From the IMG/VR virus record IMGVR_UViG_3300005077_000003, positions 96,001-160,000 of that record: a stretch of 64,000 nucleotides of DNA, one strand, 5' to 3'. The position numbers were made by a program, and so were the translations under genes. This document shows positions 1-59,511 of the stretch, piece after piece (the first letter of the stretch is position 1; each line of letters begins with the position of its first letter). The notes under the pieces are model-generated. The model did not search any database and was not told the DNA's origin. It saw only the letters and a program-made list of their open reading frames with translations. The DNA is from a virus.

Positions 1-504
1 CTGCTAGGAAGTAAACTAAAGACGGAAGCAACAAAAGCCGGAGTGACTTCTGTTACTGCTGCAGCTGCAGGACAGTTTACTAAAAGATCTTTGTTCCCAG
101 TATTAGGAAGAGAAATTGCTGGGAATATTACAATTAAATCAATAGGAGTACAACTAAAAACTCTTGGTATCGCATTAGGAGAAGTTAGCCCAGCATTCTT
201 AAAATCATATGTAAAATATAATTTAATTGGATCATATGTAGCTGGAGCAATATCAAGATTGCTTATTCAGAATGCTCAAGTTGGTAATAAGGCTCTACCT
301 ATAACAATGATGCCACTTATCTTTAAGGGCGCTCCACTAGAGGCTGGTTTAAATAGTACTGATTACGGATATTGGTCATTATCATCTAAAATACATTGGG
401 CTTATAAAGACTTTACTTCAACCGTAGGACGATTGTTCCACGAGCTAACATCTCCAAATGCAGACTCACAAGAGTATAATATAATTAAGGAGTTATCTAA
501 ATAA
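1..504 (+). CDS. Hypothetical protein in the baseplate region, 5'-truncated
   Basis: Frame is open from base 1 (CTG CTA GGA...) to TAA at 502-504; no recognised motif. Confidence 0.7.
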   Translation: MLGSKLKTEATKAGVTSVTAAAAGQFTKRSLFPVLGREIAGNITIKSIGVQLKTLGIALGEVSPAFLKSYVKYNLIGSYVAGAISRLLIQNAQVGNKALPITMMPLIFKGAPLEAGLNSTDYGYWSLSSKIHWAYKDFTSTVGRLFHELTSPNADSQEYNIIKELSK

Positions 505-507
505 GAT

Positions 508-1221
508 ATGTCAGTAGATAATGAAAGAAGGTTTGAGTTATGGCCAGGCTTATCATATGAGCTATTGCCAGAAAAAATACTTAATTTTGTATTCCATCCT
601 CTTGTAAGAGGTAAGATACTTGGGCTATTTTCTGGTACTGAAGGTGTATTTGAAGAGAATAGAAAATATATATACTGGAATACCCAATTTGGTGTGGCCG
701 CAAAAAGCTCTAGCGATGAACTAATATTTCTTGGCGCCAGCTCTTCTGATATAAAATCAATAGTAAATACTATGAAGTTTTTAAACATAGAAGGTTTACT
801 ATCAAATAGCAGCGATTACATAAGAGATGCCAGCATTGAAGATATTAGTAACTCTACTTATACAACTGATTTTATCAAAAAGACTATTAATATTGCTATA
901 ACAGAAATAGGCAAAAGGATATCTCTTGTAACAGCTGCAAATTACGGATCAAAGGATTCAGCTTTGTTTATAACTGATCATACATCTCCTGGTAATGGTA
1001 TTCAGCCAATAAAAAGGCTAACTGGATTTTATTCTAAAGATACTAATAAAGGGAAAATAATAGCATATTCTCATTTTACTGGGTCAAACAGATCAAATGT
1101 ATCTGATTCACACGCTGGAAGAATAAAAGATTCTGTGGCCCATATATCTAACCAAGAATTTACAGGCCCATTTGCAGAAGCAAAAATGAGATATCTTATG
1201 TATAAGGATACCCATGAGTAA
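508..1221 (+). CDS. Hypothetical protein (237 aa), baseplate region
   Basis: Long ORF overlapping the next gene by 8 nt; function inferred from position only. Confidence 0.65.
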   Translation: MSVDNERRFELWPGLSYELLPEKILNFVFHPLVRGKILGLFSGTEGVFEENRKYIYWNTQFGVAAKSSSDELIFLGASSSDIKSIVNTMKFLNIEGLLSNSSDYIRDASIEDISNSTYTTDFIKKTINIAITEIGKRISLVTAANYGSKDSALFITDHTSPGNGIQPIKRLTGFYSKDTNKGKIIAYSHFTGSNRSNVSDSHAGRIKDSVAHISNQEFTGPFAEAKMRYLMYKDTHE

Positions 1222-1681
1222 TTTTGTAGCAAACCTATATCCAGATATTAATGGATATACACCAGCAGATATAACCAATTGGTTGGTTGCATCTACTGAT
1301 GGCAAATTAATGGTATTGTCTCCAAACAGCGGGAAGACGGTTCCGGTCCTACAGGTTGGTGGCGCAGATAGTGAACTAGTATCACAAGCAGATAGTGAAA
1401 CAGAAGGCACTGTAGACAAGAATTACTCTAAAGAAGGATTAAGGACTAATCCATTATCACTGTTCCCATCATCATTTTTTACTCCTATCCCACCACAATT
1501 AAGCGCGCTTCTTCCTGGTCCTCTATCTGTTATAAGTAATCCAAATTTATTGGTTACTATATTAGCCATATCTGCTGCTGCAACAAAGGATGAAGTAAAA
1601 TATAGTTATAATGTAAAAACTTTACCAATTAAAGTTATTGACAATCAAGATCTTGAAGATAAGTTCTTTGGGAGAGAATAA
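1214..1681 (+). CDS. Hypothetical protein (155 aa), baseplate region
   Basis: TAATG overlap with the wedge gene; no motif. Confidence 0.65.
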   Translation: MSNFVANLYPDINGYTPADITNWLVASTDGKLMVLSPNSGKTVPVLQVGGADSELVSQADSETEGTVDKNYSKEGLRTNPLSLFPSSFFTPIPPQLSALLPGPLSVISNPNLLVTILAISAAATKDEVKYSYNVKTLPIKVIDNQDLEDKFFGRE

Positions 1682-2112
1682 TGGCATATAATCAAGTTGA
1701 TATATATATGGGTCTATCTGGAGATTTTCAATTAGGTTCAAATGGCGATATAATGCTTGCAGAATCATTTGAATCAACTAAACAGACAGTGAATTATATT
1801 GCGCGTACTGATAAAGGCGACTATATCCCTGATGGGAGAATTGGCGGGGACTTGGGGACCTTTGTTGGCGATATACTAGATGAAGAAATACTATCTAATA
1901 TGGAGCGCTCATTATCGTCAAATTTATCTAGATTTATTCTAAATGAGAGCGATTTCAAAGTACATTGTATGCCAATATCTATAAACGACGTTGGAGTATT
2001 CATAGTTTTAGGCGGTCAGTATCTTGATAAAGACGGAAATATATTAGATACAGATACAGAAGTTATATCATTCTCCTTCCCATATGCTGAGGGATCATCT
2101 TCTTTAGAGTAA
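1681..2112 (+). CDS. Baseplate wedge protein, gp25/DUF2634(XkdS)-like
   Basis: 143 aa; SGDFQLGSNGDI...RTDKGDY...IGGDLGTFVG pattern; lies directly upstream of baseplate J, as in contractile-tail modules. Confidence 0.7.
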   Translation: MAYNQVDIYMGLSGDFQLGSNGDIMLAESFESTKQTVNYIARTDKGDYIPDGRIGGDLGTFVGDILDEEILSNMERSLSSNLSRFILNESDFKVHCMPISINDVGVFIVLGGQYLDKDGNILDTDTEVISFSFPYAEGSSSLE

Positions 2113-2118
2113 TATGCC

Positions 2119-3273
2119 ATGAGAGCGCTTAAGACGTACGATCATATGATTGCAGACTCGCTAATTTATTTAGCTGAGAATACTGATATAACATATTTAT
2201 CAGAAGGATCGGTCGCGAGATCTCTAGTAGAAGCTACTATGCTAGAGATTGCTAAAGTACAAGAATATATAGCTGCTGGTTATGCCAATGTTTTTATTAA
2301 CTCAGCTACGGGGACATATCTTGATCTTATAGGGGAGATGGTTGGGACAGCCAGACTTACCAGTGCTAAGTCATCAGTTTCAGCAGAAGATAAAAATATT
2401 AAGTTTAGCGTGGTTTCTGGCGTATTAAGGGACAAATTCCCTCACCCAACTGATTCTACATTAGGACAAATTCCGGCTGGAATTATAATACAAACGTCAG
2501 ATGGTGCAATAAAATTCATTACTTCTGCTGCGATAACCTTCCCAGGAGGCGCCACAGAAGTCTTTGTAAGCGCAGAAGCGGAGGATTATGGCTCCATATA
2601 TAACATAGGTAAATACAGGCTAAATACGCATGATGGGCCGTCTGGAGTAAGCGTCACTAATCTATACCCTATAAGCAATGGCGGATCAGAAGAGAGTGAT
2701 GCCAACTATAGATATAGGCTAAGCAATATATTTGCTGCAGCTCCTTCTTCAAATGCGACATCTATAAGATTAGCCGTAGCTGGGATACCAGATGTTTCGC
2801 GCGTCATTTTAAATGAGTACTCAAGAGGAGCTGGCACTTTTGATGCTATGCTAATTCCTATTGGTAATAAGGTAAGCTCCAGAGCCAGAAGCTTGGCTCA
2901 AGCAGCCGTAAATCACGCATCTGCATTTGGTGTAAGTGCATTTGTAACAGAACCATCTTATTTGCCATTCAAAATAACAATACAATTAATACCAGCTAAT
3001 GGTGCGACAGCAGGTACTGTGGATGTTAATAGAATTAGTGCTAAAAATGCAGTACTTAATTATATGGAAACCATCCCCATTGGTGGAGAGCTTATAATAA
3101 ATAGGCTCCGCGCCGCAGTTATTGACAGCGTAATAAGCCAAATAAAAGACATAAAGATTATTGATATATGCTTAGAAGGTCGTTCTCGCGTAATTAGAAA
3201 TTATCAGCTAGAAAGAAACCAGCTGTTCACACCAGACACAGAATCAGGCAGCGAAGCTGTTGTTATAGTATGA
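2119..3273 (+). CDS. Baseplate J-like protein
   Basis: Motifs ATGTYLDLIG, VSAEAEDYGSIYNIG and NGGSEESDANYRYR (the GGxDxEsD..YR.R pattern of Baseplate_J). Confidence 0.88.
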   Translation: MRALKTYDHMIADSLIYLAENTDITYLSEGSVARSLVEATMLEIAKVQEYIAAGYANVFINSATGTYLDLIGEMVGTARLTSAKSSVSAEDKNIKFSVVSGVLRDKFPHPTDSTLGQIPAGIIIQTSDGAIKFITSAAITFPGGATEVFVSAEAEDYGSIYNIGKYRLNTHDGPSGVSVTNLYPISNGGSEESDANYRYRLSNIFAAAPSSNATSIRLAVAGIPDVSRVILNEYSRGAGTFDAMLIPIGNKVSSRARSLAQAAVNHASAFGVSAFVTEPSYLPFKITIQLIPANGATAGTVDVNRISAKNAVLNYMETIPIGGELIINRLRAAVIDSVISQIKDIKIIDICLEGRSRVIRNYQLERNQLFTPDTESGSEAVVIV

Positions 3274-3752
3274 CAGAGTATTTTAAGTTCTATTTTCCAC
3301 AGTATAACCCTGCAGAATTAACTGGGGCAGTTGGTGGAGCTATTAGTTCAAAAGAACTTGCTTCATCAATAAATGAATTGTTTGTACCAATAGATGTATC
3401 ATCTGGTGGGTACGCATCTGAGTTTTATCAATATAGGAAAATGTGGATCAAGCAAGTTTCGCATACCAGCTATTCTTATTTAAGTATGCAAACTGCAAAT
3501 GTGGAATATAATAGCAGGTTTGCCATAGCAACAGGGAATCACTCAGTAGGTACAGGAACAGCAACAAATGCGCTTACCGCTCCATCAGAAGTAGGGACCT
3601 GGACTTCAAATTTAGGTGCTCAGGTAAACTTATTGACAGGAGCTACCAGCGAATATAATAGTAAATATTGTATCTGGATAAGGCAAAAAATAGTATCAGG
3701 TGATACACCCGATACTATAAATAGCTTAAACATTAGATTAATTGGCTATTAA
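3270..3752 (+). CDS. Putative virion structural protein (160 aa)
   Basis: ATGA and TAATG overlaps with neighbours; beta-rich sequence (YRKMWIKQ, CIWIRQK). Confidence 0.6.
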   Translation: MTEYFKFYFPQYNPAELTGAVGGAISSKELASSINELFVPIDVSSGGYASEFYQYRKMWIKQVSHTSYSYLSMQTANVEYNSRFAIATGNHSVGTGTATNALTAPSEVGTWTSNLGAQVNLLTGATSEYNSKYCIWIRQKIVSGDTPDTINSLNIRLIGY

Positions 3753-5404
3753 TGACAGTATCAGAAAACATAGGCGAGTACTATACATATAGTACTTCAT
3801 CACCATTTCTTGGTAATATAACAATATCTACCAAGCTGGTAGATAATTCTATAACATCAATTAAGCCAAGATATGGTTGCCGCGCATATTCTACTCAGAA
3901 GATTATGAACAATCTTCCTGCATGGATGGAAATGCGCAAAAACCATGAGTCAATTGCACAACAATTAACTCACGCATGGGGTAAAGAATTAGATGATACT
4001 ATATCACTATATAATGAGTATAGAGCAAATCAGTTCATAGGTACTTCTGATACCTTCTGTGACATAAGTACTGGTATTTCAGATTTATCTTTTAGTGAAT
4101 ATAAAGTTTATGAACCAAGATTAGTAAACTTATTATTTAACTCATCTTTTAGTATTAAAGGAGCAGCAAGGCTGCAAAAGCCAGAAGGCTGGCATGTTGA
4201 AAGAGATGAATTAAATGCTCTATCTTTTTATACAGAAGATACATTATTTGGAGAGAACTCCCTATTACTCGATGGCTCTATTGGAGAAGTTGTTTTAAAA
4301 CAAAGCAGGGAATATACTCAAAGTGGTGGCTCCCTAAACCTAAGTATATTTGTAAAAACAATTGGTTCTACTGGTTCTACTACTAGTAAAGTACAAGAAC
4401 ATAAAGGTGGAATTATATTAGTACTACAATATGCTGATGGTGAAACAAGGTCGTATGGTATAGGATTCCCTAATAATACACAAGACAAATGGGCGCGCGC
4501 CACTTTCTCTGTAGAGGTAACCAAAAAAATATTTAAGTATGAAGTTCTAATAATAAATAGAACAGCATATATTTATGCAGTAGATCTACCACAGCTTGAA
4601 GTAGGTAAGTCAGCAACTAACTGGACACCTAGCTTATATGATACTCCTATATTCTTAAACTCTAATGTAAGACATATGGCGGCAGTACAAGTATTACTTG
4701 GGAAGTCTGATGGTGCTATAAATAAATTAGAGCTACTAGCAATAAATTCCTCGGATGAATTCAAGGATACTATTATACCAACAAGAATAGAGGCAGCTAC
4801 TATAGTAGATAATCCAAGACATTCATTTAATTTAGAGTATCTACAAGAAGTAACATATGGTAAAGAAGAACTACCCACTAAATGGGTTGTCTATAACAAT
4901 AAAATAAGACAACAAAGCATAACTACTCCAGATGTATATGGAGAAGAAATGCTACCAGTAGATTTATATATGAATGAAGATGGCGTATTATTACTAAATA
5001 CTTATGATGCCGATAATGGTAATATATCAGTATGCGCTTTGACTATATATAACAACTGGATGTTTGTTGTAACTAAAGAATCATATATGGGCAGTACTAA
5101 GTATGTGCTAAAATTTGTAAGACCTGGAAAGCTTACGTATGATGATGTGTACTTGCAATCTTTTGGAGATATAGAACTACCATTAGATTTAGCGGGCAAC
5201 CCACAACTTGATGAACCAGAAGATACAATAACAAGGATAGGTATATGTAAGAATATACCATTTACAATTTTCATAGACACAGATTTAAGAAAGAGATTCT
5301 ACTTCAGCATGAAGTATGATTATACCTATGCTGATTTTAGACAACGTAAACTTTATTGTAGAGAAAATTACGTCGCTAACGGTAGTAGATTACAAGTAGT
5401 GTAG
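3752..5404 (+). CDS. Virion protein with a CBM4/9-like carbohydrate-binding module (550 aa)
   Basis: NLLFNSSF...PEGW and LPQLEVG..ATNWTP motifs typical of galactose-binding-like domains in phage tail proteins. Confidence 0.55.
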   Translation: MTVSENIGEYYTYSTSSPFLGNITISTKLVDNSITSIKPRYGCRAYSTQKIMNNLPAWMEMRKNHESIAQQLTHAWGKELDDTISLYNEYRANQFIGTSDTFCDISTGISDLSFSEYKVYEPRLVNLLFNSSFSIKGAARLQKPEGWHVERDELNALSFYTEDTLFGENSLLLDGSIGEVVLKQSREYTQSGGSLNLSIFVKTIGSTGSTTSKVQEHKGGIILVLQYADGETRSYGIGFPNNTQDKWARATFSVEVTKKIFKYEVLIINRTAYIYAVDLPQLEVGKSATNWTPSLYDTPIFLNSNVRHMAAVQVLLGKSDGAINKLELLAINSSDEFKDTIIPTRIEAATIVDNPRHSFNLEYLQEVTYGKEELPTKWVVYNNKIRQQSITTPDVYGEEMLPVDLYMNEDGVLLLNTYDADNGNISVCALTIYNNWMFVVTKESYMGSTKYVLKFVRPGKLTYDDVYLQSFGDIELPLDLAGNPQLDEPEDTITRIGICKNIPFTIFIDTDLRKRFYFSMKYDYTYADFRQRKLYCRENYVANGSRLQVV

Positions 5405-5407
5405 ATC

Positions 5408-8182
5408 ATGGCTTACAAACAGTATTCTGATTATGCATATACGGGCAACCAAGAATCCTATAAAAATAGGATACAAAATAATGCATTCGACACTAATTAT
5501 GCGGAAGAAATCTCTTTCCCATATAAATATGATGTCTTTGTAAATAAAGAAAATACAACAGAAGGTCCATTCTCTGTTACTGAGAGCCACATAAGCTCTC
5601 AGATAGATGGCGGTGTATTATATTTAGACCACAGATTCGCGGTAGATGCTACCGGCGGTATTGCAAGTGTAACATGTTCTGATGGTTCCGCGACAATAGT
5701 CGGATATGATACGTATGTTGGTTCAATAGAGTTTGGTGTTGAACCAACAACTTCGCCTTTTACTATAACATATTCAGCGCGCGGAGATAAGACCTGGGAC
5801 TCACATATAAATGCCGTACAAAACGCAGTAATGCGTATAGAGAATACTATTGGCCTACATGATAATGACCCTGCCCAAACAGGATTAATATCTCTTCCTC
5901 TTGTAACTACTTGGGAGCCAGCTAATCAAGCAGACCTTGATAATATGAAGCTGAATACTCTCAAGAATATAGTGCTACTTGAACACTTACAAGATGATAT
6001 TAAGATAGGTAGTACCCGTGGTGCAATTACTTCTACTGGCCCTCATACAATTACAATAGGCAATCCTGGTGGTGCTGATACTGATAGCATAGTAATAGAT
6101 GCTGCATCTATTACAGTTAATTCATCTAATACTGATGGCGGCACACTAATATATAGTGCCAGCACTGGAGACTTTGTATATTTTACTGGTCAATCTGAGT
6201 TTGCATCTCAGATGACAATCGGTAAATCTTGGGCGGTAACCGGCCTATATTCTGGGGTTATCCCATCACATATGACCGGCTTCTACAATGACGCAATGCT
6301 TAGAGTAAATGGGAACATTTACTTTGGCGGCAATATGTCTGGGAATGGTTCCATAACCTTCGTTTTATCGACAGGAGAAATGGTTGATGTTGTTGGTGGC
6401 AACATGTATATAGACAACCTTACTGTAGATTCATCTCTAACAGTAAATGCGCCATCTACTTTCTCAAAAAGATTATACGTACAAGGTCCTGGATATTTTG
6501 AAACAAATAATGATATTACATTAACTAATAAAACAAACTACAGCCCTACAAAAATTGATGGCCTAGATCCCAGCTATGCCGATGCAGCAGTAAATAGCAA
6601 CGCAATGTTGCCAGGTACTATTGGTACTCCTATATATAAAGAACCATTTGATGGCACTGATTATAGTAATCCATATATATCTGGAGCCAAAGAACATCCT
6701 ATACTTAGAAGCTGGATGTATCCGATGCTAGGTGGGTGGATGTTTACAGGCACAGTAAATTACGAAAAAGCATCCTATTATTCTCATAAAAATGTACTAT
6801 TAGTTAATGCTAATATGAGAGCTGCCAGTGGTGGCTATGGCGATGTTGATGACTATTTTACATATTGCCCTGGACTATTCTCACCTGGTGATACATATAT
6901 AGAAATAGAAAATTCTACATCAGATGCTTTTGCATACCCAATATATTATCACGAAGCTCTTACTGGAACAGTAAGTACGGTTGTAACAGCAACTGGGTTA
7001 AATTTATATGTAGTTGCAGATGACGATGCTTTTGAGGGAGCAACAATAGCTGGTAGCACGTATAGATTATTCCAGCCAAGCAATGCACCAATGGGGTATT
7101 TGTCAGGATGGGGAGGCGCTACAACTTCTCCTAATGTAAGCTTTGGAGTACAATCATATAGCTACTATGGAGGATCAACGCAAAAAACTATTGATATTAA
7201 AACGCACCCATCACACATTGGTCCATCAGCTGGAGCTACTCCTTGGCCTATATATAGAAGGATAAAAAATAATTCTATATTGACTTGTAGTGTAAAAACA
7301 GCACTACAAAGGAATATAGACCATGAAGGAATATCTGACTTACCTGGAGGGTACGGAGATATAACTACTCCCATAAATGGTATTGCATATATATATGCAG
7401 CTAGCCATAATTCATATGGAACACTAGATGAAAACGTAACTTTAATAGCATCTCCAAGTCCATATGGTATATGTGCAGAAAATACTTGGGGAGTAGGATT
7501 AAACCTAAATCCTGGTCAGTGGACTATCGTTGGTGAGGTAGCAGCATCTACTTCAGATGGAAATACCTGGACACATATAGAGACAGTTGGCTATAGGCCA
7601 AATGGATTGTACGATTCTTGCTGGGTACCTATTACTCAATATAGAATGACGGATTTATCTTTACCATGGTCTACTATACCATCAGAACCGGTTGAGAATA
7701 TGGGCAGGTGCTTGCCTATTATTGTACATGATGATTGGATTTCTGTAGCCGATGATTTATGGAGGGATAATGTATATGAAGGGAGGATGAATTTTTATGT
7801 TGAACATAACTTAGGCCCAATTAGAAATCTCTCAGATGTTTCATTAGAAGTATACGTTGGAGATATAAAACCAGATATATTTATGCATCCATTATCTGGT
7901 GCATCTGCAAATGATTGGGGAAGTTTCCATCAGGCATCTTCAACATGGGCATCAGTATGGGGCGGTTTAACATCCCCATTTGGCGATCGACATTGGCTTG
8001 GTGATGGATATAAACCAACTTGGAATGACAGAAGAGGATTCTTAAGACAAATACCTGATGCTCAGCTAGCATTTTTTGATTCAAGATTTGCTAGGATATC
8101 TATCTTTGATGAAGAATATATGAAAGCATATGATGAATCTCTACCTCAATATATTAGAGTTATTATAAAGAGAACTAAGTAA
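5408..8182 (+). CDS. Large tail/fibre-associated protein (924 aa)
   Basis: SHINAVQNAVMRIENTIG fibre-anchor-like motif; Gly/Thr/Ser-rich; coupled within the operon. Confidence 0.55.
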   Translation: MAYKQYSDYAYTGNQESYKNRIQNNAFDTNYAEEISFPYKYDVFVNKENTTEGPFSVTESHISSQIDGGVLYLDHRFAVDATGGIASVTCSDGSATIVGYDTYVGSIEFGVEPTTSPFTITYSARGDKTWDSHINAVQNAVMRIENTIGLHDNDPAQTGLISLPLVTTWEPANQADLDNMKLNTLKNIVLLEHLQDDIKIGSTRGAITSTGPHTITIGNPGGADTDSIVIDAASITVNSSNTDGGTLIYSASTGDFVYFTGQSEFASQMTIGKSWAVTGLYSGVIPSHMTGFYNDAMLRVNGNIYFGGNMSGNGSITFVLSTGEMVDVVGGNMYIDNLTVDSSLTVNAPSTFSKRLYVQGPGYFETNNDITLTNKTNYSPTKIDGLDPSYADAAVNSNAMLPGTIGTPIYKEPFDGTDYSNPYISGAKEHPILRSWMYPMLGGWMFTGTVNYEKASYYSHKNVLLVNANMRAASGGYGDVDDYFTYCPGLFSPGDTYIEIENSTSDAFAYPIYYHEALTGTVSTVVTATGLNLYVVADDDAFEGATIAGSTYRLFQPSNAPMGYLSGWGGATTSPNVSFGVQSYSYYGGSTQKTIDIKTHPSHIGPSAGATPWPIYRRIKNNSILTCSVKTALQRNIDHEGISDLPGGYGDITTPINGIAYIYAASHNSYGTLDENVTLIASPSPYGICAENTWGVGLNLNPGQWTIVGEVAASTSDGNTWTHIETVGYRPNGLYDSCWVPITQYRMTDLSLPWSTIPSEPVENMGRCLPIIVHDDWISVADDLWRDNVYEGRMNFYVEHNLGPIRNLSDVSLEVYVGDIKPDIFMHPLSGASANDWGSFHQASSTWASVWGGLTSPFGDRHWLGDGYKPTWNDRRGFLRQIPDAQLAFFDSRFARISIFDEEYMKAYDESLPQYIRVIIKRTK

Positions 8183-36054: not shown

Positions 36055-36065
36055 TGTAATAAAAA

Positions 36066-37397: not shown

Positions 37398-37402
37398 CTA
37401 AA

Positions 37403-37684
37403 ATGACTGACTTATCAGGAAGAGTTGATGCATTAGAGTCTGGACTAACTTCTTTAGAAGGTCAAATACTTGCATTACCAACGAATAGTGATATATCAAA
37501 TTTTACACAGCTAATATCTGGTAAATTAAATACAATAGAAACTAGTTTAAATAATCATGGCGATGTTATTACACAATTAATACAAAGCTTTGCTAATTTA
37601 AAAAATACAATTCTTGGTATTGATACTGCTTTTGCTGCACATACCGGCACTACTACCGGCGAAGGCGTACACGGACATCAATGA
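37403..37684 (+). CDS. Small coiled-coil fibre/spike-like protein with C-terminal HxH (93 aa)
   Basis: Heptads ([19 protein letters not shown]...) ending AHTG...VHGHQ. Confidence 0.55.
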
Positions 37685-41841: not shown

Positions 41842-41874
41842 AAGTATTTTAATTATATGTAGTATATATTATAT

Positions 41875-42693: not shown

Positions 42694-42729
42694 AAAAAAA
42701 TTAGGGAGCCAAAATTGGCTCCCTTTTTT
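42694..42729. terminator. Bidirectional Rho-independent terminator
   Basis: A7 tract, AGGGAGCCA/TGGCTCCCT stem, T6 tract; lies between the converging virion and sugar operons. Confidence 0.85.
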
Positions 42730-53107: not shown

Positions 53108-53647
53108 TTATTTTTCGTTGTAGTAATCTCCATATTCTACTAGAATAGAAGAATTTCCATGAGTCGCAGCATAATATGCATTTCTATATGTACTAAATAT
53201 CTCTTCTGGCTCTTTTAGTTCATATATTTTTATATTATCACACATAGACCTAAATGCTTCTGAGTAATTACCTACGTGTTGGTGTTGTGGATGTATAGGT
53301 CTCTCTGAGCCTATACTTACTTTTATAATAACTCCTGGCATAAATGGCCTATCAGCCATTACTGGTATTTTATCTAAATGATTTACTATTTGATTTGTTG
53401 CTAGCAAAAGAAAGTTCCAGCGTGGATACACACTAATAGGTATCATTCCATCAAGAGCAAGTCCAATAGATAGCCCCATCTGGAACTCTTCGCATACGGG
53501 CATTTCTAATAATTTTTCTTTTGGAATATCAGCAAAAGTATTTGACATAGCAGTCCCTGGATATGCTACTGCCTGACCTAAGAAGATAACTTCTTTCTTT
53601 TCTGCAAGCCAATCCATGGTTCGCTTCATTTCATCAACATATTTCAT
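53108..53647 (-). CDS. TPP-dependent dehydrogenase E1 beta-like subunit, pyrimidine-binding domain only (179 aa)
   Basis: FLGQAV, LLEMPVCEEFQMGLSIGLAL, RWNFLLLATNQIVNHLDK. Confidence 0.85.
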   Translation of the reverse strand: MKYVDEMKRTMDWLAEKKEVIFLGQAVAYPGTAMSNTFADIPKEKLLEMPVCEEFQMGLSIGLALDGMIPISVYPRWNFLLLATNQIVNHLDKIPVMADRPFMPGVIIKVSIGSERPIHPQHQHVGNYSEAFRSMCDNIKIYELKEPEEIFSTYRNAYYAATHGNSSILVEYGDYYNEK

Positions 53648-54252
53648 TAGAATTGTACCCTCTTACCTGCGCCAGCATGGGGATATTTATTTTTATAATC
53701 ATAATATATTATATGTTTTAAGTCTTTATATGGGAGTTCTTTCATTCCCCAAGTATTCTTTGTGTCAGTGCAGACAGAGAGACCGTTATTTTCCACTATA
53801 AATGTTATAGGTAAATTAAAGTTTTCTACATATGTAATACACTCATGGAATTGTCCTGTCACATAAGCCATGTCACCTAGAAAACAATATACATGAGTAT
53901 CTGCACTTTTGCGCTTTATTGATAAAGCTACACCTGTAGCAATAGAAAGACAGCCTGTAACAATACCAGAAGAGAAGATATTATAGTTTGGATATTGTAA
54001 AGCAATAGATCTACCATTCAATATGTCTTTCTTGAGTTCTTCTGGAGGAACTCCTTTAAGAAGACATTGGTAGTGACTACGCCAGGTACAAAAAACCCAA
54101 TCTTGTTCACGTACTTTTTGAAAAATCTCAATCATCTTCTCTTCATTATTAGAGTAAAGATGGATTGGTGCTCTTATGTGAGCGGCATCAAATTCGGCGG
54201 CAATATCCGTCTCAAAATCTATTAGATCTTGTGCTGTTAGGTTTGTAATCAT
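53647..54252 (-). CDS. TPP-dependent dehydrogenase E1 alpha-like subunit, short (201 aa)
   Basis: IHL, DWVFCTWRSHY, GRSI, SSGIV, TPP motif GDM...ENN. Confidence 0.85.
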   Translation of the reverse strand: MITNLTAQDLIDFETDIAAEFDAAHIRAPIHLYSNNEEKMIEIFQKVREQDWVFCTWRSHYQCLLKGVPPEELKKDILNGRSIALQYPNYNIFSSGIVTGCLSIATGVALSIKRKSADTHVYCFLGDMAYVTGQFHECITYVENFNLPITFIVENNGLSVCTDTKNTWGMKELPYKDLKHIIYYDYKNKYPHAGAGKRVQF

Positions 54253-55739
54253 TATCTATTAGCGTAAGTTCTTTTTAAAGAATAAGACAGCATATCTTTT
54301 AACTCATCTGCTGCTCTAGGACCAAATTTCTTTGTCATCATATTAATATATCTTTCATCTGAATGATATGTGTTAAAAGCAAAGTCTCTGAATTTGAGTA
54401 TCTCTCCTGCAGATAAGAATTCAGTAGGAAGGTTAAACGTTTCTGCTGAATATTGAGAATATCCTACCCAACTTACTCCATTATTTTCTGGCAATAATTC
54501 TGGAGCACTAACAGAAATTTCTCTATGTAATCTTGATCCAGGGTATGCCATAGCAGAACAAAAACTTGCATACTCAGTATTTAGTTCTTGAGCTAAAGCC
54601 AATGTTTCTTTCATAGTATCTATATTTTCCCCAGGAAGACCAATAATATAATTACCTATTATACTTATATCATAGTATCTAATTTTATTTACTATATCCA
54701 CTATATCAACATCTTTGTATTGTCCTTTAGCACTTTCAAGACGTATATTCCTATTAGCAGACTCTATCCCAAGAGCAATCCAATTTACTCCCGCTCTCTT
54801 TAGAAGAGAAAGATATTCATCTTTTATAGTATCTATCCTTGCATAACACCATATATTAAATTTATGGCCTCTTTCTACAATAAGTTCACAGATACGAGCA
54901 AAGTGATTTGGGTTTAAAACAAACATTTCATCAGCTATTTTAAGATTAGTAATCCCCATTTCTGCTATTTTATCGAGTTCTGTTATTACAAATTCTGGAC
55001 TCCAGTATCTAATTCTTGGAGTACCAAATGGTGCATTTATCATACAGAACGAGCAGCTATATGGACAGCCTAAACTAGTATAAATGCTTGCAAATGGTTG
55101 GCGTTTATTATTATTTGTCCAACTTAACCAATTATTCGCCTTATATCTTGTAGATGGAAGCAGGTCCCAAGCTAATCCTGGTAGTTCCTCATCAAGATTT
55201 TTTATTAATTCTGCTGGTTTAGTAGATACAATATCTTTTGATTTAGAATAGTAATATAGTCCTGGAACTGTACTAAGTTGAGTTTCGTCAAACATATTTA
55301 CTTGAAGAAGCTTATCTAGTGTAAATAGGCCCTCTCCTTTAGCTACAAAAGCAGCTTTATCATCTAATATCGTTTTTTCTGGTAGAGCAGAAGGATGAGC
55401 TCCTACATATATAATTGGTATATTACTTCCAGATAAAGCTGCAGAAATATCCATTAGCCCTACCATATTAGGAGTAGATGCTTGAGGATTTTGTCCATAT
55501 GCGACAAGAGCAACAAGTCTAGGGTTAATGTTTACTATTTTTTTTGCTGCAGTTGTTGCTGAAATATTTTCTGCTTCTGTATCTAAAACACCAGCTCGAT
55601 GTCCTTTCTTTCTAAGGCCGTTTGCTAATAAAGATATCCATATTGGTGGCTCTATTGCAGAAAGCCTAGTACTCAGAGTTTGGTATATCTTTTTTGAACC
55701 ATTTGGATGAACAAGAAGTAAATCTATATTATTATTCAT
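54252..55739 (-). CDS. Cobalamin-binding radical SAM enzyme (class B methyltransferase-like, 495 aa)
   Basis: EPPIW, VGAHPSALP, GEG, TSLGCPYSCSFC, DEMF, LGIES, YIIGLPGE. Confidence 0.9.
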   Translation of the reverse strand: MNNNIDLLLVHPNGSKKIYQTLSTRLSAIEPPIWISLLANGLRKKGHRAGVLDTEAENISATTAAKKIVNINPRLVALVAYGQNPQASTPNMVGLMDISAALSGSNIPIIYVGAHPSALPEKTILDDKAAFVAKGEGLFTLDKLLQVNMFDETQLSTVPGLYYYSKSKDIVSTKPAELIKNLDEELPGLAWDLLPSTRYKANNWLSWTNNNKRQPFASIYTSLGCPYSCSFCMINAPFGTPRIRYWSPEFVITELDKIAEMGITNLKIADEMFVLNPNHFARICELIVERGHKFNIWCYARIDTIKDEYLSLLKRAGVNWIALGIESANRNIRLESAKGQYKDVDIVDIVNKIRYYDISIIGNYIIGLPGENIDTMKETLALAQELNTEYASFCSAMAYPGSRLHREISVSAPELLPENNGVSWVGYSQYSAETFNLPTEFLSAGEILKFRDFAFNTYHSDERYINMMTKKFGPRAADELKDMLSYSLKRTYANR

Positions 55740-56451
55740 ATTTAGTATCTTTTAAATTATTAAGTTTATTTGCAGCTTCTATAATGCTAGATACGCATTG
55801 TCTATAAATTGTTGACGGATGATTTGTTTTAATATTTACTCTACGTTCAATATATGTTGTATCTATTTGAGACTTACCTAGTATAAAGTGCATATGCTCA
55901 TTTATAAATGGTAGTCTTTTTCTTCTATTAATAAGTTTTGCTATATCATTAATATAGTTGTCACTATAGTCAAATTCAAAACATGGTAATGATATATAGC
56001 CTACTGTTTCTATCCATCTTTTGTGTATAATAGGATGACTTGCAAACCCTTCTTCATTTCCACCAGCAGTTCCTACTAAATCATCGCCTGATACTAACCA
56101 TAATTTATCTATCGAACTATCAAAAAAATCTATTATAATCTTATCCCAGCTGAGTGTTCTTTGTATTAGATCATCTCCGCATAAATATATTATATCTTCT
56201 TTAACATCTTGGTATAGTATATCAAGCATTGCTGAGAAGACTATTCTAGGTCGTACAATATAGTGAATTTGATCTGGAAAGCTTTCTTGAAGAGGTAATA
56301 CAGCTGTTAATGATAATAAGTCATCATCATCTATGTAAAGATATAATTTTAAATTAGATATATCATCAGCAGTATTAACTACTGATTGCCAAAATCTAAT
56401 TAGCTCATTAGGCCTATTTCTTATAGGCATCAGCATAGCTATCTTAGCCAT
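55732..56451 (-). CDS. GT2-like glycosyltransferase
   Basis: MLMPIRNRP, YLYIDDDD, LCGDDL, YSD. Confidence 0.75.
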   Translation of the reverse strand: MAKIAMLMPIRNRPNELIRFWQSVVNTADDISNLKLYLYIDDDDLLSLTAVLPLQESFPDQIHYIVRPRIVFSAMLDILYQDVKEDIIYLCGDDLIQRTLSWDKIIIDFFDSSIDKLWLVSGDDLVGTAGGNEEGFASHPIIHKRWIETVGYISLPCFEFDYSDNYINDIAKLINRRKRLPFINEHMHFILGKSQIDTTYIERRVNIKTNHPSTIYRQCVSSIIEAANKLNNLKDTKYE

Positions 56452-56453: not shown

Positions 56454-57398
56454 CTATATATTTGTATAAGAAGTAAGAGTTCTGCTAATAATTTCATAGC
56501 ATTTTAATAGTTCGGCTATTCCAGAATCCAAAGTATAAATTGGCTTCCATCCAAGTGATTCAATTTTTTTATTAGATACTATATAGTCTCTTTTATCGGG
56601 ATCAGTTGCAATATTATCTTTCTGTATAGAGAACTCTGGAATAAATTTTTTAATTCTTTCTGCAAGTTGCAATTTAGTTATGTTAGTATCAGATAATCCT
56701 ATATTATAAGTTTGACCCGACATTTTATCATAGTTTTTTATTGCAAACTTAAATGCCCTAGCTACATCTTTTACATGGATATAATTTCTATTAAATTCCC
56801 ATTCAAATAGTACAATATACTTGTCTCGCATAGCTTTTAATGTAAAGTCATTTACCAATAAGTCTATACGCATTCTAGGAGATGAACCAAATACTGTTGC
56901 AAGTCTAAAAGATACACCTCCAGTAGATAATATATGGTCTTCTGCCATACATTTTGTTTTTCCATAATGGCTAATTGGATTAAGGGGTGTTTCTTCTGTA
57001 CAAAATACACCCTTTTCTCCTACGCCATACCCGCTATTTGTATTAGGATATATAATTTTTGTTTCAGCCCGTTTATGTTCAAGGATAGCCTTAATATGAT
57101 TATAATTAACATCAAGAGCTAATTGCTTATCCCGCTCACAAGCTGGAAACCCGACTATAGCTGCTAAAGGTATGATTATATCAGCCTTGTTTACATAACT
57201 GAGCAATTTCTTGATATCACGAACATCTCCATATACAAATGTAAAATCTTCGTTATAACAAAGGTCCATAAATGGAGTTTGCTTATACATAAGATTGTCA
57301 TATACAATAACTTTATGTCCAGCATTAATTAGCTCATATGTGAGCGTAGAACCTAAATATCCAGCTCCACCAGTAATCAAAACCTTAAAACTCGACAT
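56454..57398 (-). CDS. NAD-dependent epimerase/dehydratase (extended SDR)
   Basis: ITGGAGYLGS, GDVRD, LAAIVG, YGKTK (YxxxK), FRLATVFG. Confidence 0.9.
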   Translation of the reverse strand: MSSFKVLITGGAGYLGSTLTYELINAGHKVIVYDNLMYKQTPFMDLCYNEDFTFVYGDVRDIKKLLSYVNKADIIIPLAAIVGFPACERDKQLALDVNYNHIKAILEHKRAETKIIYPNTNSGYGVGEKGVFCTEETPLNPISHYGKTKCMAEDHILSTGGVSFRLATVFGSSPRMRIDLLVNDFTLKAMRDKYIVLFEWEFNRNYIHVKDVARAFKFAIKNYDKMSGQTYNIGLSDTNITKLQLAERIKKFIPEFSIQKDNIATDPDKRDYIVSNKKIESLGWKPIYTLDSGIAELLKCYEIISRTLTSYTNI

Positions 57399-58152
57399 AA
57401 GTTACTCCTCTTTTTTGTATTACCTTTGTTGCGCATTCGTTTGCATATTTTATCGCAGCAATTATATCTAAATTTAATAGGTATTTTATAGTTAATGCCG
57501 CTAGGAATGTATCGCCTGCTCCTACACAGTCTTTCATTGGTACAGATGGAACGTGAAACTCTTCATTTTGATATATACATCCTTTATCCCCTCTAGTTAC
57601 AATTACATTATGAGCCAGTATTGGATTTAAATCAAACACATGTTTAGTATTATTATATTCACTTGTATTGAGTTTTATGAAGGTAATGTCATTACACCAT
57701 CTGCCCAAGATTTTTTTTGTGTCCAAGAATGTAATTGGATAATAAACAGCTATTTTTGATATATCAGATTCTGTTAAAAATCCTTTGCAGTAATCTGATA
57801 TTATAACAGCCTTAGCATTTGGATAGCTATCAAATAGCTTATTAATATCACAGTGTTCTACTTTATCATCACCCTCATCTACTCTTAGCAACATACTATT
57901 AGTACGTTCTTCTACATACCTGGTCTTTGATATCTCTTTCCAATTATCATTAGTAATAATACCAGGTTTAGTATTTATATTGTTTATTTTTAGCAATGAC
58001 TCTAGATTTAATAAAGTATTCATAGCCATACCTGGATTGCTTTTCTGGCTAACTTTATTAAATACTAATGCTGGAGCTTCTGGGGCAATTCTATTACATG
58101 GTCCATAGATAAAATTATCTATACAACTTTCTCCAATGACAACTATTTCCAT
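57385..58152 (-). CDS. PfkB-family sugar kinase resembling the HldE/RfaE heptose-7-phosphate kinase domain
   Basis: VIGESCID...RIAPEAPALV, ISDYCKG, VTRGDKG, DCVGAGDTF. Confidence 0.82.
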   Translation of the reverse strand: MEIVVIGESCIDNFIYGPCNRIAPEAPALVFNKVSQKSNPGMAMNTLLNLESLLKINNINTKPGIITNDNWKEISKTRYVEERTNSMLLRVDEGDDKVEHCDINKLFDSYPNAKAVIISDYCKGFLTESDISKIAVYYPITFLDTKKILGRWCNDITFIKLNTSEYNNTKHVFDLNPILAHNVIVTRGDKGCIYQNEEFHVPSVPMKDCVGAGDTFLAALTIKYLLNLDIIAAIKYANECATKVIQKRGVTYVEF

Positions 58153-58156
58153 TTTA

Positions 58157-58546
58157 TTACCAACTTATTTCCCAATCTTTGAATTCACTAGCTAAACAAT
58201 CAACTTTGTAGTCTTTACGCCCACCAATTGATTCTTGTATAATATTTTTCGCAGTATTTCTTATGCCATTAAGGCCATGTGTTAGTTTTAGGTTTCCATC
58301 GGAAAGCCCTTTTCTAACATTAGACTCATTATGCCATATATGTAAATTCATTTGCGACAAAACTATTATCGCACGAATCATTTCTGATTGTATACCTAGT
58401 AGTTCTAAATCATGTAGTATATCTTTTATTTCCTGTGCATATTCTTCTTTATGCTCAGGAATAAAGACTTCTTTTAATTGTAAGATAGATAACCTATCTA
58501 TCAATTCTGAAACAGTTGGTAAATATTTTCTTTTGTTTTCATCCAT
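58157..58546 (-). CDS. Hypothetical helical protein in the sugar cluster (about 129 aa)
   Basis: KYLPTVSELIDRLSILQLKE...; start reassigned to the ATG just after the upstream stop. Confidence 0.65.
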   Translation of the reverse strand: MDENKRKYLPTVSELIDRLSILQLKEVFIPEHKEEYAQEIKDILHDLELLGIQSEMIRAIIVLSQMNLHIWHNESNVRKGLSDGNLKLTHGLNGIRNTAKNIIQESIGGRKDYKVDCLASEFKDWEISW

Positions 58547-58551
58547 AATAT

Positions 58552-59511
58552 TTATAATATACTCGTACAATGTTTTACTAATAATTCTGCATTATTACTT
58601 GGTAAATGTCTTTTTATAAAAGATTCTTTTATATATGATAGTGTTTTTTCGTCTTTAAAAGTAGTTGCCTCGGTGATTTTCTGTACCCACTCATCAATGT
58701 TATTGATATCGTCAACAACAAAGCCATATTGGGCAATATTATCATGTTTAACTGCACATCTATTAGATACAACTACTGGCAACCCAGCAACCTGTGCTTC
58801 AACAATAGTCATCCCATATGTTTCTGTTCTAAATGGAGATACTAATAATGATACATTATTATACATGCTGCCGTAATGCTGTTGACCAATTATATTGATA
58901 TTATTATTAACAATAACTGGTTCAAAGTCTTTATATCCAACAATATTAAATTGTAATGACGGCATTTTAGATGCTATATTGTTAAGAATATCAAATCCTT
59001 TTACAAATGATACTCTAGACATTAGTATAGGACCATCTATGGCTCTACAATTATTAAAGTTCGAAAAATCTATACTTGGATATACTACTTCAGTCTTATA
59101 ATTAAATTGGTCTTCTAATACAGATTTGAAATAATTAGAATTAGCAATAACTAAATCAGGTTTAAAGTTCTTATTTTGTAATTCACAATTAGAGCATTCT
59201 TTTGAACAAAAAGCAGTTATGCTTGGATATCCACCCTTTGAACAGATATGTTCATATGAATGAGCCATATAAACTAGCGGCTTATTTAATAAGCATGCAA
59301 CCTGTTCTCCATATGGAGTCCAGTTTAGTTGTGTAATAATAATATCAGAATCAACAAACTTTCTTAAACAAGAAAAGTCATTTAAATTAGTATTAGTAAT
59401 TGTATAGCAAATATGTCCACTATTTCTTAGTGCATTAATTAAGTTAATAGATGTTATTTCTGCACCACCAACTGGAATAGTTAGGTTATATGCTATATAA
59501 AGTATTTTCAT
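58552..59511 (-). CDS. GT-B (GT4-like) glycosyltransferase
   Basis: GGAEI, IANS, KGFD, ETYGMTIVEAQVAGLPVVVS. Confidence 0.88.
   Translation of the reverse strand: MKILYIAYNLTIPVGGAEITSINLINALRNSGHICYTITNTNLNDFSCLRKFVDSDIIITQLNWTPYGEQVACLLNKPLVYMAHSYEHICSKGGYPSITAFCSKECSNCELQNKNFKPDLVIANSNYFKSVLEDQFNYKTEVVYPSIDFSNFNNCRAIDGPILMSRVSFVKGFDILNNIASKMPSLQFNIVGYKDFEPVIVNNNINIIGQQHYGSMYNNVSLLVSPFRTETYGMTIVEAQVAGLPVVVSNRCAVKHDNIAQYGFVVDDINNIDEWVQKITEATTFKDEKTLSYIKESFIKRHLPSNNAELLVKHCTSIL

Follow-up and report, generated by a model that had tools for sequence, protein, structure and literature searches.

The window analyzed here, a 64,000-nucleotide stretch of a 177.6-kb phage record, contains the end of a virion operon on the plus strand and, facing it, 19 minus-strand ORFs (42951-59511) whose ends overlap or abut in the ORF map. 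Because of this translational coupling, the 19 genes look like a single operon. Family assignments were made with Pfam, NCBIfam and PHROG profiles, motif checks and Atlas embedding clusters. An earlier note on this DNA had described a 19-gene cluster of nucleotide-sugar and tailoring enzymes with eight glycosyltransferases (GTs), which was confirmed by the ORFs, the Pfam/NCBIfam/PHROG matches and fold; the operon also encodes one 137-aa protein. The features are as follows:

1..42588, plus strand: last 42.6 kb of an approximately 87-kb virion operon (PHROG: baseplate wedge, virion structural proteins)
42703..42724, no strand assigned: predicted bidirectional intrinsic terminator (9-bp stem, 6 G-C pairs, T-runs on both strands)
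42951..44084, minus strand: ColD/E1-type PMP-dependent sugar 3-dehydratase, DegT family (PF01041, 284 bits)
44071..45039, minus strand: GDP-mannose 4,6-dehydratase, Gmd (PF16363, 358 bits; TIGR01472, 8e-104)
45039..45980, minus strand: Fcl/ColC-like epimerase-reductase (NF047922 GDP-L-fucose synthase, GDPFucSynFcl, 2e-53, below the equivalog cut-off)
45977..46585, minus strand: SAM-dependent methyltransferase (PF08241, 23.6 bits; phrog_6636 methyltransferase)
46567..50386, minus strand: five tandem GT-A paralogues (46567-47328, 47325-48083, 48073-48837, 48837-49616 and 49613-50386; pairwise identity 27-33%)
50379..51293, minus strand: GT-B-like glycosyltransferase, Glyco_trans_1_2 (PF13524, 67.7 bits)
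51281..53107, minus strand: class B (cobalamin) radical SAM enzyme, KedN5 family (NF033712, 6e-71)
53108..53647, minus strand: mini E1 beta-like (pyrimidine-binding) TPP-enzyme subunit, 179 aa (PF02779)
53647..54252, minus strand: mini E1 alpha-like (TPP-binding) subunit, 201 aa (PF00676, 59 bits)
54252..55739, minus strand: second B12-binding radical SAM enzyme (PF04055, 69.9 bits; PF02310, 39.8 bits)
55732..56451, minus strand: GT-A glycosyltransferase of a phage-typical family, 239 aa (phrog_14945 "glycosyltransferase", 4e-32)
56454..57398, minus strand: extended SDR, nucleotide-sugar epimerase/reductase (PF01370, 108 bits)
57385..58152, minus strand: PfkB sugar kinase (TIGR02198, 9e-32; phrog_8133, 2e-66)
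58157..58570, minus strand: predicted helical protein, 137 aa (among viral 133-135-aa Atlas clusters)
58552..59511, minus strand: GT4-family (GT-B) glycosyltransferase, operon gene 1 (PF00534, 45 bits; PF13692, 44 bits)
59534..60212, minus strand: interrupted tRNA-Gly(CCC), upstream border of the island (ARAGORN, introns allowed, relaxed threshold)

By sequence, fold or motif, a GDP-3,6-dideoxyhexose line can be recognized in Gmd, the ColD/E1-type 3-dehydratase and the Fcl/ColC-like reductase. In the DegT protein, a His is aligned to the Schiff-base Lys of perosamine synthase, as in ColD/E1 3-dehydratases, and the PDB matches include both ColD and E1. The YxxxK motif was found in Gmd by the motif check; this protein may alternatively be a GDP-heptose dehydratase. 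Both B12-binding radical SAM proteins contain the CxxxCxxC motif (CPFKCTYC at residue 180 of 51281..53107 and CPYSCSFC at residue 225 of 54252..55739), and the former, which is 40-46% identical to proteins of many bacterial phyla, is likely a sugar C-methyltransferase. The E1 alpha-like subunit has an intact GDM-x26-NN TPP motif; its identity is 38-40% with the fused "transketolase" genes that S-SM2 and P-TIM68 carry and 35.5% with one gene in a phage of 735 kb, while the beta-like subunit matches the C-terminal half of phrog_34187 (31-34% identity to S-SM2 and P-TIM68). The PfkB kinase, nearest to heptose-7-phosphate kinase (HldA-like; rfaE domain I, 9e-32), carries the GAGD motif and is 42-45% identical to the "carbohydrate kinase" of the same two phages; the SDR is 47-52% identical to a bacterial-cassette gene in six loci. 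Profiles, alignment and motif checks thus yielded an enzyme set with intact catalytic motifs, which supports the synthesis of rare deoxy, branched and methylated sugars by soluble enzymes.

Among the eight GTs, the GT4 (58552-59511) and Glyco_trans_1_2 (50379-51293) proteins passed the Pfam cut-offs. The 239-aa GT lies near Atlas viral GT2 clusters (cosine 0.99, TM 0.90) and is 30% identical to a GT of Pelagibacter phage HTVC008M; tblastn with it gave matches in Streptomyces and Pelagibacter phages and none in Mycobacterium phages. The five GT-A paralogues, for which no Pfam or PHROG family was matched, share invariant DD and R/E/G columns in their alignment, and a profile of the family retrieved 386 cluster representatives (E<=1e-30), among which are 2x and 4x fusions. 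An AF2 model of one paralogue (pLDDT 88.6) has a GT-A fold, with the GDP-fucose transferase WrtF, RmlT and ppGalNAc-Ts as best Foldseek matches. These eight soluble GTs could assemble sugars at the cytoplasmic face. The 137-aa protein had no Pfam, PHROG or phage tblastn match.

A hairpin with a perfect 9-bp stem (42703-42724) is sited between two converging units, virion/sigma on one side and the glycan operon on the other, and its T-runs on both strands agree with the common terminator proposed earlier. The convergence of the virion operon on the cluster also stood, whereas its supposed length of 42 kb proved to be only the window part of about 87 kb, and its last gene (41875-42588), previously counted as a virion protein, is a sigma-70 region-4 regulator (Sigma70_r4 match). 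The virion operon is listed here as the neighbor of the putative glycan system, not as a demonstrated part of it. The island is bordered by tRNA genes; the interrupted tRNA-Gly(CCC), whose acceptor stem pairs perfectly over 7 bp and whose anticodon loop holds an insert of 598 nt, was missed by ARAGORN at default settings. Primase-helicase, nuclease, NUDIX and GMP-reductase genes are on the same strand as the island, which lies downstream of these replication and nucleotide-metabolism genes and is transcribed separately from the virion genes.

A crude hydropathy scan of the entire 177.6-kb record detected no protein with more than four TM segments and, among the cluster proteins, no signal-like segment at the N-terminus, in line with the membrane-free cluster described before; the record also had no phosphoglycosyl transferase, flippase or polymerase candidate. 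The term "self-contained" had to be dropped, as no NTP_transferase or cytidylyltransferase-like gene is present anywhere in the phage record; the host has to supply GDP-mannose and whatever nucleotide activation the kinase product undergoes. The whole record was likewise examined for DNA base modification, in which phage DNA would receive sugars from the GTs on hydroxylated or hydroxymethylated bases and thereby evade restriction. Phage transferases do attach mono- to oligosaccharides to DNA (PMC13326640; bioRxiv 10.1101/2023.12.21.572611), and the position downstream of replication and nucleotide-metabolism genes would suit this role. However, the record contains no gene of the thymidylate-synthase (ThyA) family, the maker of 5hmC, 5hmU and 5hoC nucleotides, although the same search was positive in 10 of 14 control genomes, and DNA glycosylation is therefore unlikely. 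A search for TET/JBP, which lacked a working control, gave no match in the record, and eight GTs with branched C-methyl dideoxy sugars far exceed the complexity of described DNA glycans; we regard such a target as very improbable.

The relative G001, the only one showing the junction, is collinear with window 16529-42588 at 32-55% aa identity. Past its homolog of the gene ending at 42588 there are about 270 bp with one 79-aa ORF and then a homolog of window 62456-63154; the virion and flanking genes are kept and the entire 20-kb island is missing. The glycan island is a variable insert. The earlier argument from adjacency to a virion target is not supported by this comparison, and a relative that has the virion genes but no GT cluster is among the findings that the earlier note itself named as speaking against its proposal.

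Comparable glycan islands are already known from large ocean phages, namely the sugar ("LPS/cell-surface") clusters of the cyanomyoviruses P-SSM2, S-SM2, P-TIM68 and S-SCSM1/S-SCSM2R and of other jumbo phages (PMC1079782, PMC7824862, PMC12801897). Like them, the present island has many genes, with SDR epimerase/dehydratases, a PfkB kinase and several paralogous transferases; in both cases the clusters are sporadic among relatives, tRNA-bordered and of unproven target, and the E1 and kinase genes are true homologs (38-45% identity; phrog_34187, phrog_8133). Unlike them, this phage lacks phosphoheptose isomerase and nucleotidyltransferase genes, encodes E1 as two mini genes rather than one fused gene, and adds the 3-dehydratase, two cobalamin radical SAM enzymes and five PHROG-less GT-A copies.

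A rival reading, which we hold tentatively and rate only slightly below virion proteins as the acceptor, is that the host envelope is remodelled: the sugars and soluble GTs would act on a lipid- or wall-linked host acceptor at the inner membrane face, and the new glycan would be displayed by enzymes of the host (initiating transferase, then flippase or ABC exporter, and ligase), blocking superinfection or keeping progeny off debris, as proposed for cyanophage "LPS" clusters. The 38-45% identity of the E1 and kinase module to modules of the S-SM2 and P-TIM68 sugar clusters, both far from virion genes and the former adjoining a tRNA array, is in its favor, as are the dependence on host nucleotide sugars, the variable tRNA-bordered site (with other accessory genes in G001) and the fold matches, of which the best is an O-polysaccharide GDP-fucose transferase and the next a teichoic-acid rhamnosyltransferase. 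The enzyme TarP is soluble and acts without phage membrane parts. The premise that a phage must bring membrane proteins of its own to modify the host surface was too strong: prophage TarP alters wall teichoic acid (PMC9650247); sporadic occurrence among relatives is also as described for such clusters (PMC7824862). Nevertheless, no lytic large phage has been demonstrated to alter host surface glycan by such a cluster, the surface-modifier reading of the cyanophage clusters is itself a hypothesis (PMC1079782), an initiating or export gene is absent, and the flippase, polymerase or ligase of the host would still need to accept a foreign unit built by eight GTs. Seroconversion cassettes (GtrA/GtrB/Gtr-type, Oac, Wzy-beta) and TarP are also phage genes and alter host surface glycan, but Gtr, Oac and Wzy are integral membrane proteins, none of which occurs in this phage, and TarP is a single temperate-phage enzyme (PMC9650247) compared with the 19-gene factory here.

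The product could also be soluble, either a free glycoside or oligosaccharide or a compound resembling a secondary metabolite (signal, toxin or osmolyte), or the operon could mainly drain host GDP-mannose, in both cases with no macromolecule decorated; even together, these two options seem improbable. AviB1/AviB2 are an E1-like pair of an antibiotic deoxysugar pathway (avilamycin); such pairs and KedN5-type radical SAM methylases (NCBIfam name) are best known from these pathways, and secondary-metabolite-like sugar clusters occur in cyanophages (PMC7824862). Aglycone-forming genes (PKS, NRPS, cyclases) are, however, absent from the island, and eight GTs suggest a carrier-bound oligosaccharide.

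The bacterial pathways to branched or 3,6-dideoxy sugars include those of GDP-colitose (Gmd-ColD-ColC), yersiniose (E1/E3, YerE, YerF) and avilamycin (AviB1/AviB2), with which the island shares a 4,6-dehydratase, a His-type PMP 3-dehydratase, a reductase and a TPP enzyme. A cassette of KedN5-type radical SAM, E1, dehydratase, DegT, reductase and SDR genes recurs across many bacterial phyla, among them Planctomycetota, Nitrospirota, Omnitrophota, Verrucomicrobiota, Proteobacteria and CPR. In the bacterial cassettes the E1 subunits are full-length (320 and 347 aa) and are accompanied by a GHMP kinase and nucleotidyltransferases, whereas in the phage the E1 subunits are truncated, the kinase is of the PfkB type and a nucleotidyltransferase is absent. 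In three anammox Planctomycetes the cassette comes immediately after flgK and flagellin genes and NeuB is added to it, the make-up of a flagellin glycosylation island. This adjacency is confined to one bacterial clade; among other cassette genomes, flagellin genes are on separate contigs in three and none were found in two. In a Nitrospiraceae genome the cassette sits with a GT2-GT41 fusion, GT41 being a protein-glycosylating family, and within 10 kb, 26 of the 41 such bacterial loci lack any protein with at least five TM segments. Flagellin glycosylation islands O-glycosylate a self-assembling structural protein in the cytoplasm, using rare sugars and having no membrane enzymes dedicated to the task; unlike them, this phage has no flagellin, Maf or GT41 genes.

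To our knowledge, mycobacteriophages with virion glycans have no sugar factory. The chlorovirus route consists of Gmd, GDP-fucose synthase and soluble transferases. Chlorovirus PBCV-1 and mimiviruses, like this phage, encode GDP-sugar enzymes (Gmd and a fucose-synthase-type reductase) and sugar methylation, and their soluble transferases work without membrane machinery (PMC5408694, PMC4691112, PMC9614988); chloroviruses have their own sugar-nucleotide and GT genes alongside glycosylated capsid proteins (PMC5408694, PMC4691112). Giant-virus autonomous glycosylation is the working model nearest to virion glycosylation here, but the hosts are eukaryotic, and in those viruses the glycans were found chemically on capsid or fibril proteins. 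For mycobacteriophages, glycan is reported on structural proteins, at the C-termini of capsid and tail-tube subunits, attached by soluble phage-encoded transferases, one to few in contrast to the eight here (Freeman et al. 2023, via PMC12619734).

We propose that the island is an accessory operon active in the cytoplasm of the infected cell. Host GDP-mannose, and perhaps a heptose phosphate, would be diverted; the 4-keto intermediate would lose its oxygen at C3, the E1 pair would add a two-carbon branch, and the radical SAM enzymes would C-methylate the sugar before reduction. The eight GTs would then assemble an oligosaccharide of about eight residues, which, as our leading guess, would be placed directly on phage-particle proteins before or during assembly. 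We assign virion proteins as acceptor a probability of about 0.4. Rare-sugar synthesis, soluble GTs and the missing membrane part stand from the original proposal, and self-containment and the adjacency argument do not. The intact enzyme set, the single coupled operon, the record free of polytopic membrane proteins and flippase or polymerase, the bacterial cassettes beside flagellin or GT41, the 26 loci without multi-TM neighbors and the chlorovirus precedent argue for it. Against it, position is the sole link of the cluster to any virion protein, G001 keeps collinear virion genes without the island, and the island shares the replication and nucleotide-metabolism strand, apart from virion transcription. 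The virion proteins are, in correction of the earlier note, only mildly Ser/Thr-rich (17-22% versus a genome mean of 13%) and have no mucin-like tract (at most 42% S+T per 40 residues), and the want of an obvious acceptor tract also counts against virion glycosylation. So does the typical occurrence of 3,6-dideoxyhexoses in O-antigens. The O-polysaccharide fucosyltransferase as nearest solved fold (PMC12595478), flagellin adjacency in one clade only and the reading of homologous cyanophage modules as host-surface modifiers (PMC1079782, PMC7824862) weigh in the same direction.

Direct protein glycosylation has precedents in chloroviruses, mimiviruses, some mycobacteriophages and, in the cytoplasm, bacterial flagellin. 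Further accessory genes lie farther along in G001. The phage is not T4-like; judged by terminase, its nearest counterparts are large phages of Moorella and Bacillus.

Facing the virion genes, an earlier note had seen a cluster of 19 genes for rare-sugar synthesis and glycosyl transfer, and gene packing, Pfam/NCBIfam matches, motifs and fold all confirm it. Because the ends of neighboring genes overlap or abut, the 19 genes look like one translationally coupled operon. It is compact and rich in chemistry, with a 3-dehydratase, a TPP carboligase-like pair and two cobalamin radical-SAM enzymes.

Features at and next to the glycan island (window coordinates)
42703-42724, both strands: perfect bidirectional terminator hairpin between the virion operon and the island
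42951-59511, minus strand: glycan island, 19 genes
46567-50386, minus strand: five consecutive island genes without a Pfam match
59534-60212, minus strand: tRNA-Gly(CCC) with a perfect acceptor stem and an anticodon loop split by 598 nt
59843-60184, antisense within that 598-nt insert: ORF for a 113-aa zinc-ribbon protein
60405-61412, minus strand: GMP reductase/IMPDH-family gene (325 bits), between two tRNA genes, just upstream of the island

The Pfam/NCBIfam assignments in the island include a DegT-family enzyme, Gmd, an Fcl-like reductase, a methyltransferase, an SDR, two B12-binding radical-SAM proteins, an E1 beta-like protein (179 aa), an E1 alpha-like protein (201 aa) and a PfkB kinase closest to heptose-7-phosphate kinase. 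In an alignment, the DegT protein has a His at the position of the Schiff-base Lys of perosamine synthase which, as far as sequence can tell, is the mark of the ColD/E1 3-dehydratases. Moreover, the CxxxCxxC motif is kept in both radical-SAM proteins, YxxxK in the SDRs, the thiamine-diphosphate motif GDM-x26-NN in E1 alpha and GAGD in the kinase. As in the GDP-L-colitose pathway (Gmd, ColD and ColC), the His-type DegT enzyme has gmd and a homologue of fcl as neighbors; to judge from the E1 and radical-SAM genes, the sugar is probably processed further.

Starting from the enzyme families, motifs, operon packing and lack of membrane parts established by this analysis, we propose the following route. 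GDP-mannose of the host (or a GDP-heptose) would be dehydrated at C4/C6 and deoxygenated at C3, and the E1 pair would next add a two-carbon branch. Such a branch is attached by YerE and AviB1/AviB2. The sugar may then be C-methylated by the radical-SAM enzymes and reduced by the SDRs, and the eight transferases would build an oligosaccharide that probably also bears O- or N-methyl groups.

The number of eight glycosyltransferases, proposed from the sequence alone, is right, since the five genes without a Pfam match encode proteins of the GT-A fold and the 239-aa protein is a phage-typical GT-A enzyme (phrog_14945 at 4e-32; Atlas); one Glyco_trans_1_2 protein and one GT4 protein (Pfam/NCBIfam) make up the rest. 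The five are paralogues that share 27-33% identity, and the DD, R, E and G columns of their alignment do not vary. The first was modeled with AlphaFold (pLDDT 88.6) as a GT-A fold, and the best PDB matches of the model are WrtF (a GDP-fucose O-polysaccharide transferase), RmlT (a teichoic-acid rhamnosyltransferase) and polypeptide GalNAc-transferases. For the GT4 and Glyco_trans_1_2 proteins, no PDB relatives were found by sequence. Two more GT-B genes (483 and 389 aa, phrog_2170) form a small plus-strand unit at G000:165140-167761 of the full phage record (L166:5140-7761), outside the window and about 9.6 kb past the island, bringing the phage to at least ten transferases.

Further examination of the surroundings indicated how the island relates to the virion genes. 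The IMG/VR record (G000) comprises 177,611 bp, of which the window covers bases 96001-160000, and is 92% complete by its rating. Its virion operon is a single very long plus-strand unit from about G000:51,000 to 138,588, so that the 42-kb operon described earlier corresponds to the last 42.6 kb, which lie in the window, but not to the operon itself. In this part, PHROG matches are to baseplate-wedge proteins and 'virion structural protein', and the terminal gene encodes a sigma-70 region-4 regulator. The terminator that the earlier note saw as common to the island and the virion operon is the hairpin at 42703-42724. Upstream of the island, the same strand of the window carries genes for a primase-helicase, a PD-(D/E)XK nuclease, a NUDIX protein, tRNA-Met, a 215-aa protein, GMP reductase and the interrupted tRNA-Gly. 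A sigma-70 promoter scan performed no better than on shuffled sequences, and the timing of island expression can therefore not be inferred from it.

A natural 'minus' relative of the island is provided by G001, a 31-kb fragment collinear with window 16529-42588 at protein identities of 32-55%. In G001, the sigma-like gene is followed by about 270 bp with one 79-aa ORF and then by a minus-strand homologue of window 62456-63154; the 20 kb comprising the glycan operon, the GMP reductase gene and two tRNA genes are absent. Given this relative, the same-strand replication and nucleotide-metabolism neighbors and the tRNA border, the island is a variable insert with a tRNA border, placed where the replication/nucleotide-metabolism side ends, and it merely meets the virion operon at the terminator. 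The earlier note asked whether related phages retain the island together with the Ser/Thr-Gly-rich virion proteins, and named a relative with the virion genes and no glycosyltransferase cluster as evidence against its proposal. G001 is such a relative, a single and rather distant one, in which the collinear virion genes are kept without the island. Inheritance of transferases together with the structural proteins that they modify, a mark of virion glycosylation of the mycobacteriophage or giant-virus type, is not seen in this one informative relative. Sporadic presence in a variable region is thus seen, with G001 as the one case: among further candidates, none spans the junction, other NUDIX-bearing contigs being unrelated phages and a second relative (G002) stopping 476 bp after the 443-aa gene, short of the junction. 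A set of 80 loci drawn by a tail-fiber query was discarded as unrelated, having matched through repeats. Further along the same strand, G001 (L084:6747-11107) has genes for a RuBisCO-like large chain, a cupin, a methyltransferase, a DUF7796 protein and a small winged-helix protein. The junction is a hot spot of accessory metabolic genes.

NTP_transferase (PF00483) and cytidylyltransferase-like (PF01467) genes are absent from the whole record, and both searches were positive in 14 of 14 control genomes. GDP-mannose must be taken from the host, as must the nucleotide activation, if any, of the kinase product and the cofactors cobalamin, TPP, PMP and SAM. The system had been called self-contained; without a nucleotidyltransferase of its own, and with GDP-mannose, activation and cofactors coming from the host, it is not. 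A link between the GMP reductase/IMPDH gene and the supply of guanine nucleotides for GDP-sugars is possible.

With regard to the acceptor, crude scans revealed no protein with more than four predicted TM segments in the 177.6 kb (Kyte-Doolittle) and no signal-like N-terminus among the island proteins (hydropathy), in agreement with the reported lack of membrane components and signal peptides. Seroconversion cassettes (Gtr, Oac and Wzy) differ from this phage, by the same Kyte-Doolittle scan, in having an integral membrane flippase, transferase or polymerase. We give a probability of roughly 40% to virion proteins, glycosylated in the cytoplasm, as the acceptor. In the virion proteins, Ser and Thr together account for 17-22% of residues, a mild form of the Ser/Thr richness that had been pointed out, but there is no mucin-like tract, and no segment exceeds 42% per 40 aa. 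The last large virion protein (1386 aa, 37681-41841) consists of collagen triple-helix repeats and a CBM5/12 carbohydrate-binding module, and the match to its G001 counterpart is confined to the first ~350 residues. The fuller proposal is tentative: phage-made branched, C-methylated 3,6-dideoxy sugars would be assembled into an oligosaccharide of about eight sugars on virion proteins in the cytoplasm, the unnamed GT-A family would be protein-directed, and cobalamin radical-SAM chemistry would act on a viral glycan. If virion proteins are the acceptor, this phage would be the bacterial-virus counterpart of the autonomous glycosylation of chloroviruses and mimiviruses, and the exotic glycans of its own making would matter for adsorption, for immune recognition and for the stability of the particles in the environment. 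A soluble product is an unlikely outcome of the same enzymes.

DNA as the acceptor is highly improbable, because the record has no thymidylate-synthase-family gene (PF00303, search controls working) and all described routes to glycosylated DNA bases first use either a thymidylate-synthase-family enzyme or a methyltransferase plus TET (PMC13326640; bioRxiv 10.1101/2023.12.21.572611). The TET family (PF12851) had no match in the record, the same search being empty in every control genome too. The check for DNA base-modification genes in the rest of the genome, suggested in the earlier note, thus yielded no thymidylate-synthase-family gene.

Similar sugar clusters in large phages were described in P-SSM2 in 2005 and have been surveyed in jumbo phages; they have been read, as a hypothesis, as changing the host O-antigen or capsule against superinfection (PMC1079782, PMC7824862, PMC12801897). 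Such big islands have thus been known since 2005, and in none is the target proven. Identities of 38-45% link the mini-E1 pair and the kinase to the fused 'transketolase' and the 'carbohydrate kinase' of the cultured cyanophages S-SM2 and P-TIM68 (the PfkB kinase 42-45%, with phrog_8133 at 2e-66), whose sugar clusters also contain epimerases, heptose enzymes and transferases; in S-SM2, the cluster follows a tRNA array. The split E1 pair is also present in an uncultured 735-kb phage, and relatives of the 239-aa transferase occur in Pelagibacter phage HTVC008M and ~130-kb Streptomyces phages. Like cyanomyovirus-type islands, which have one to four NAD-dependent epimerase/dehydratase paralogues, a PfkB sugar kinase and several paralogous glycosyltransferases, the present island has Gmd, Fcl-like and SDR proteins, the kinase and the transferases, and it is likewise sporadic among relatives, judging from G001; unlike them, this phage has no HIGH-superfamily or other nucleotidyltransferase for making an NDP-sugar. 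Owing to this cyanophage context, another role is suggested for the E1 pair and kinase, which may supply or alter a heptose phosphate. Extension of a host lipid-linked glycan by the phage transferases is also a possible, if far from assured, reading, and the data are about as compatible with it as with cytoplasmic glycosylation of virion proteins. A host-surface target would mean receptor masking by a lytic-phage route. The island is real and chemically unusual, and it is not a demonstrated virion-glycosylation system; glycans on the particle, if detected, would add greatly to its importance.

The analysis also reaches beyond phages, to an uncharacterized bacterial sugar cassette. The family of the KedN5-type radical-SAM enzyme is very large in bacteria, and in 59 bacterial loci that were fetched, the radical SAM is repeatedly accompanied by E1 alpha/beta, 4,6-dehydratase, Fcl-like, DegT and SDR homologues (≤52% identity), to which the cassette adds a GHMP kinase and a nucleotidyltransferase. 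These genes are a conserved cassette of many phyla, which immediately follows flgK and flagellin genes in three anammox Planctomycetes.

Anammox form of the cassette
L120:971-20917, L107 and L105: E1 alpha/beta, 4,6-dehydratase, reductase, KedN5-type radical SAM, GHMP kinase, DegT, nucleotidyltransferases and NeuB

This form is a candidate island for glycosylating flagellin with branched or C-methyl sugars. A general linkage to flagellin was ruled out by five other cassette genomes, three with flagellin on other contigs and two in which none was found. In a Nitrospiraceae genome, the cassette is accompanied by a GT2-GT41 fusion, GT2, Glyco_trans_1_2 and methyltransferases, and in 26 of 41 bacterial loci no polytopic membrane protein is encoded within 10 kb.

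None of the five cassette-bearing bacterial genomes examined has the five-paralogue GT-A family, which is separate from the cassette. The family has hundreds of cluster representatives and neither a Pfam nor a PHROG model: a profile search gave 386 at E ≤ 1e-30, on contigs of phage-like size, and 928 at E ≤ 1e-10. The latter number ruled out an impression of near uniqueness from a first word-based search (four homologues). Some metagenomic members (P0132-P0139, including P0135) are fused two-domain (~510-540 aa) or four-domain (1110 aa) proteins. P0004 is encoded on 51 contigs of up to 51.5 kb and P0141 on 70 contigs, and P0132 and P0135 come from contigs of 129 kb and 59 kb. No close relatives of the radical-SAM enzyme or of the GT-A homologues P0004 and P0136 were found in IMG/VR, and none of the proteins P0003, P0004 and P0158 in GTDB genomes. 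The one hit of a single metagenome scan was a 2.2-kb contig (L085), on which GT-A, Fcl-like and E1-alpha-like genes adjoin.

No close phage was detected by megablast, the island matched none of 50,697 phage records, and the G000 terminase is only distant kin of terminases from Moorella, Bacillus and other large phages. The tRNA-Gly(CCC) was not called by default ARAGORN, and Rfam revealed no group I intron there; the alternatives are an unusual intron and disruption of the tRNA gene by a small mobile ORF. Three essential genes of G000 (terminase, primase-helicase and ribonucleotide reductase) are apparently intein-bearing. The 995-aa terminase (L001, G000:57433-60420) matches terminases in two separated parts and DnaB-type sequences in the middle; in the other two genes (L166:184-3840 and 12990-17393), a LAGLIDADG domain is found in the primase-helicase, and intein, LAGLIDADG and HNH domains in the ribonucleotide reductase.
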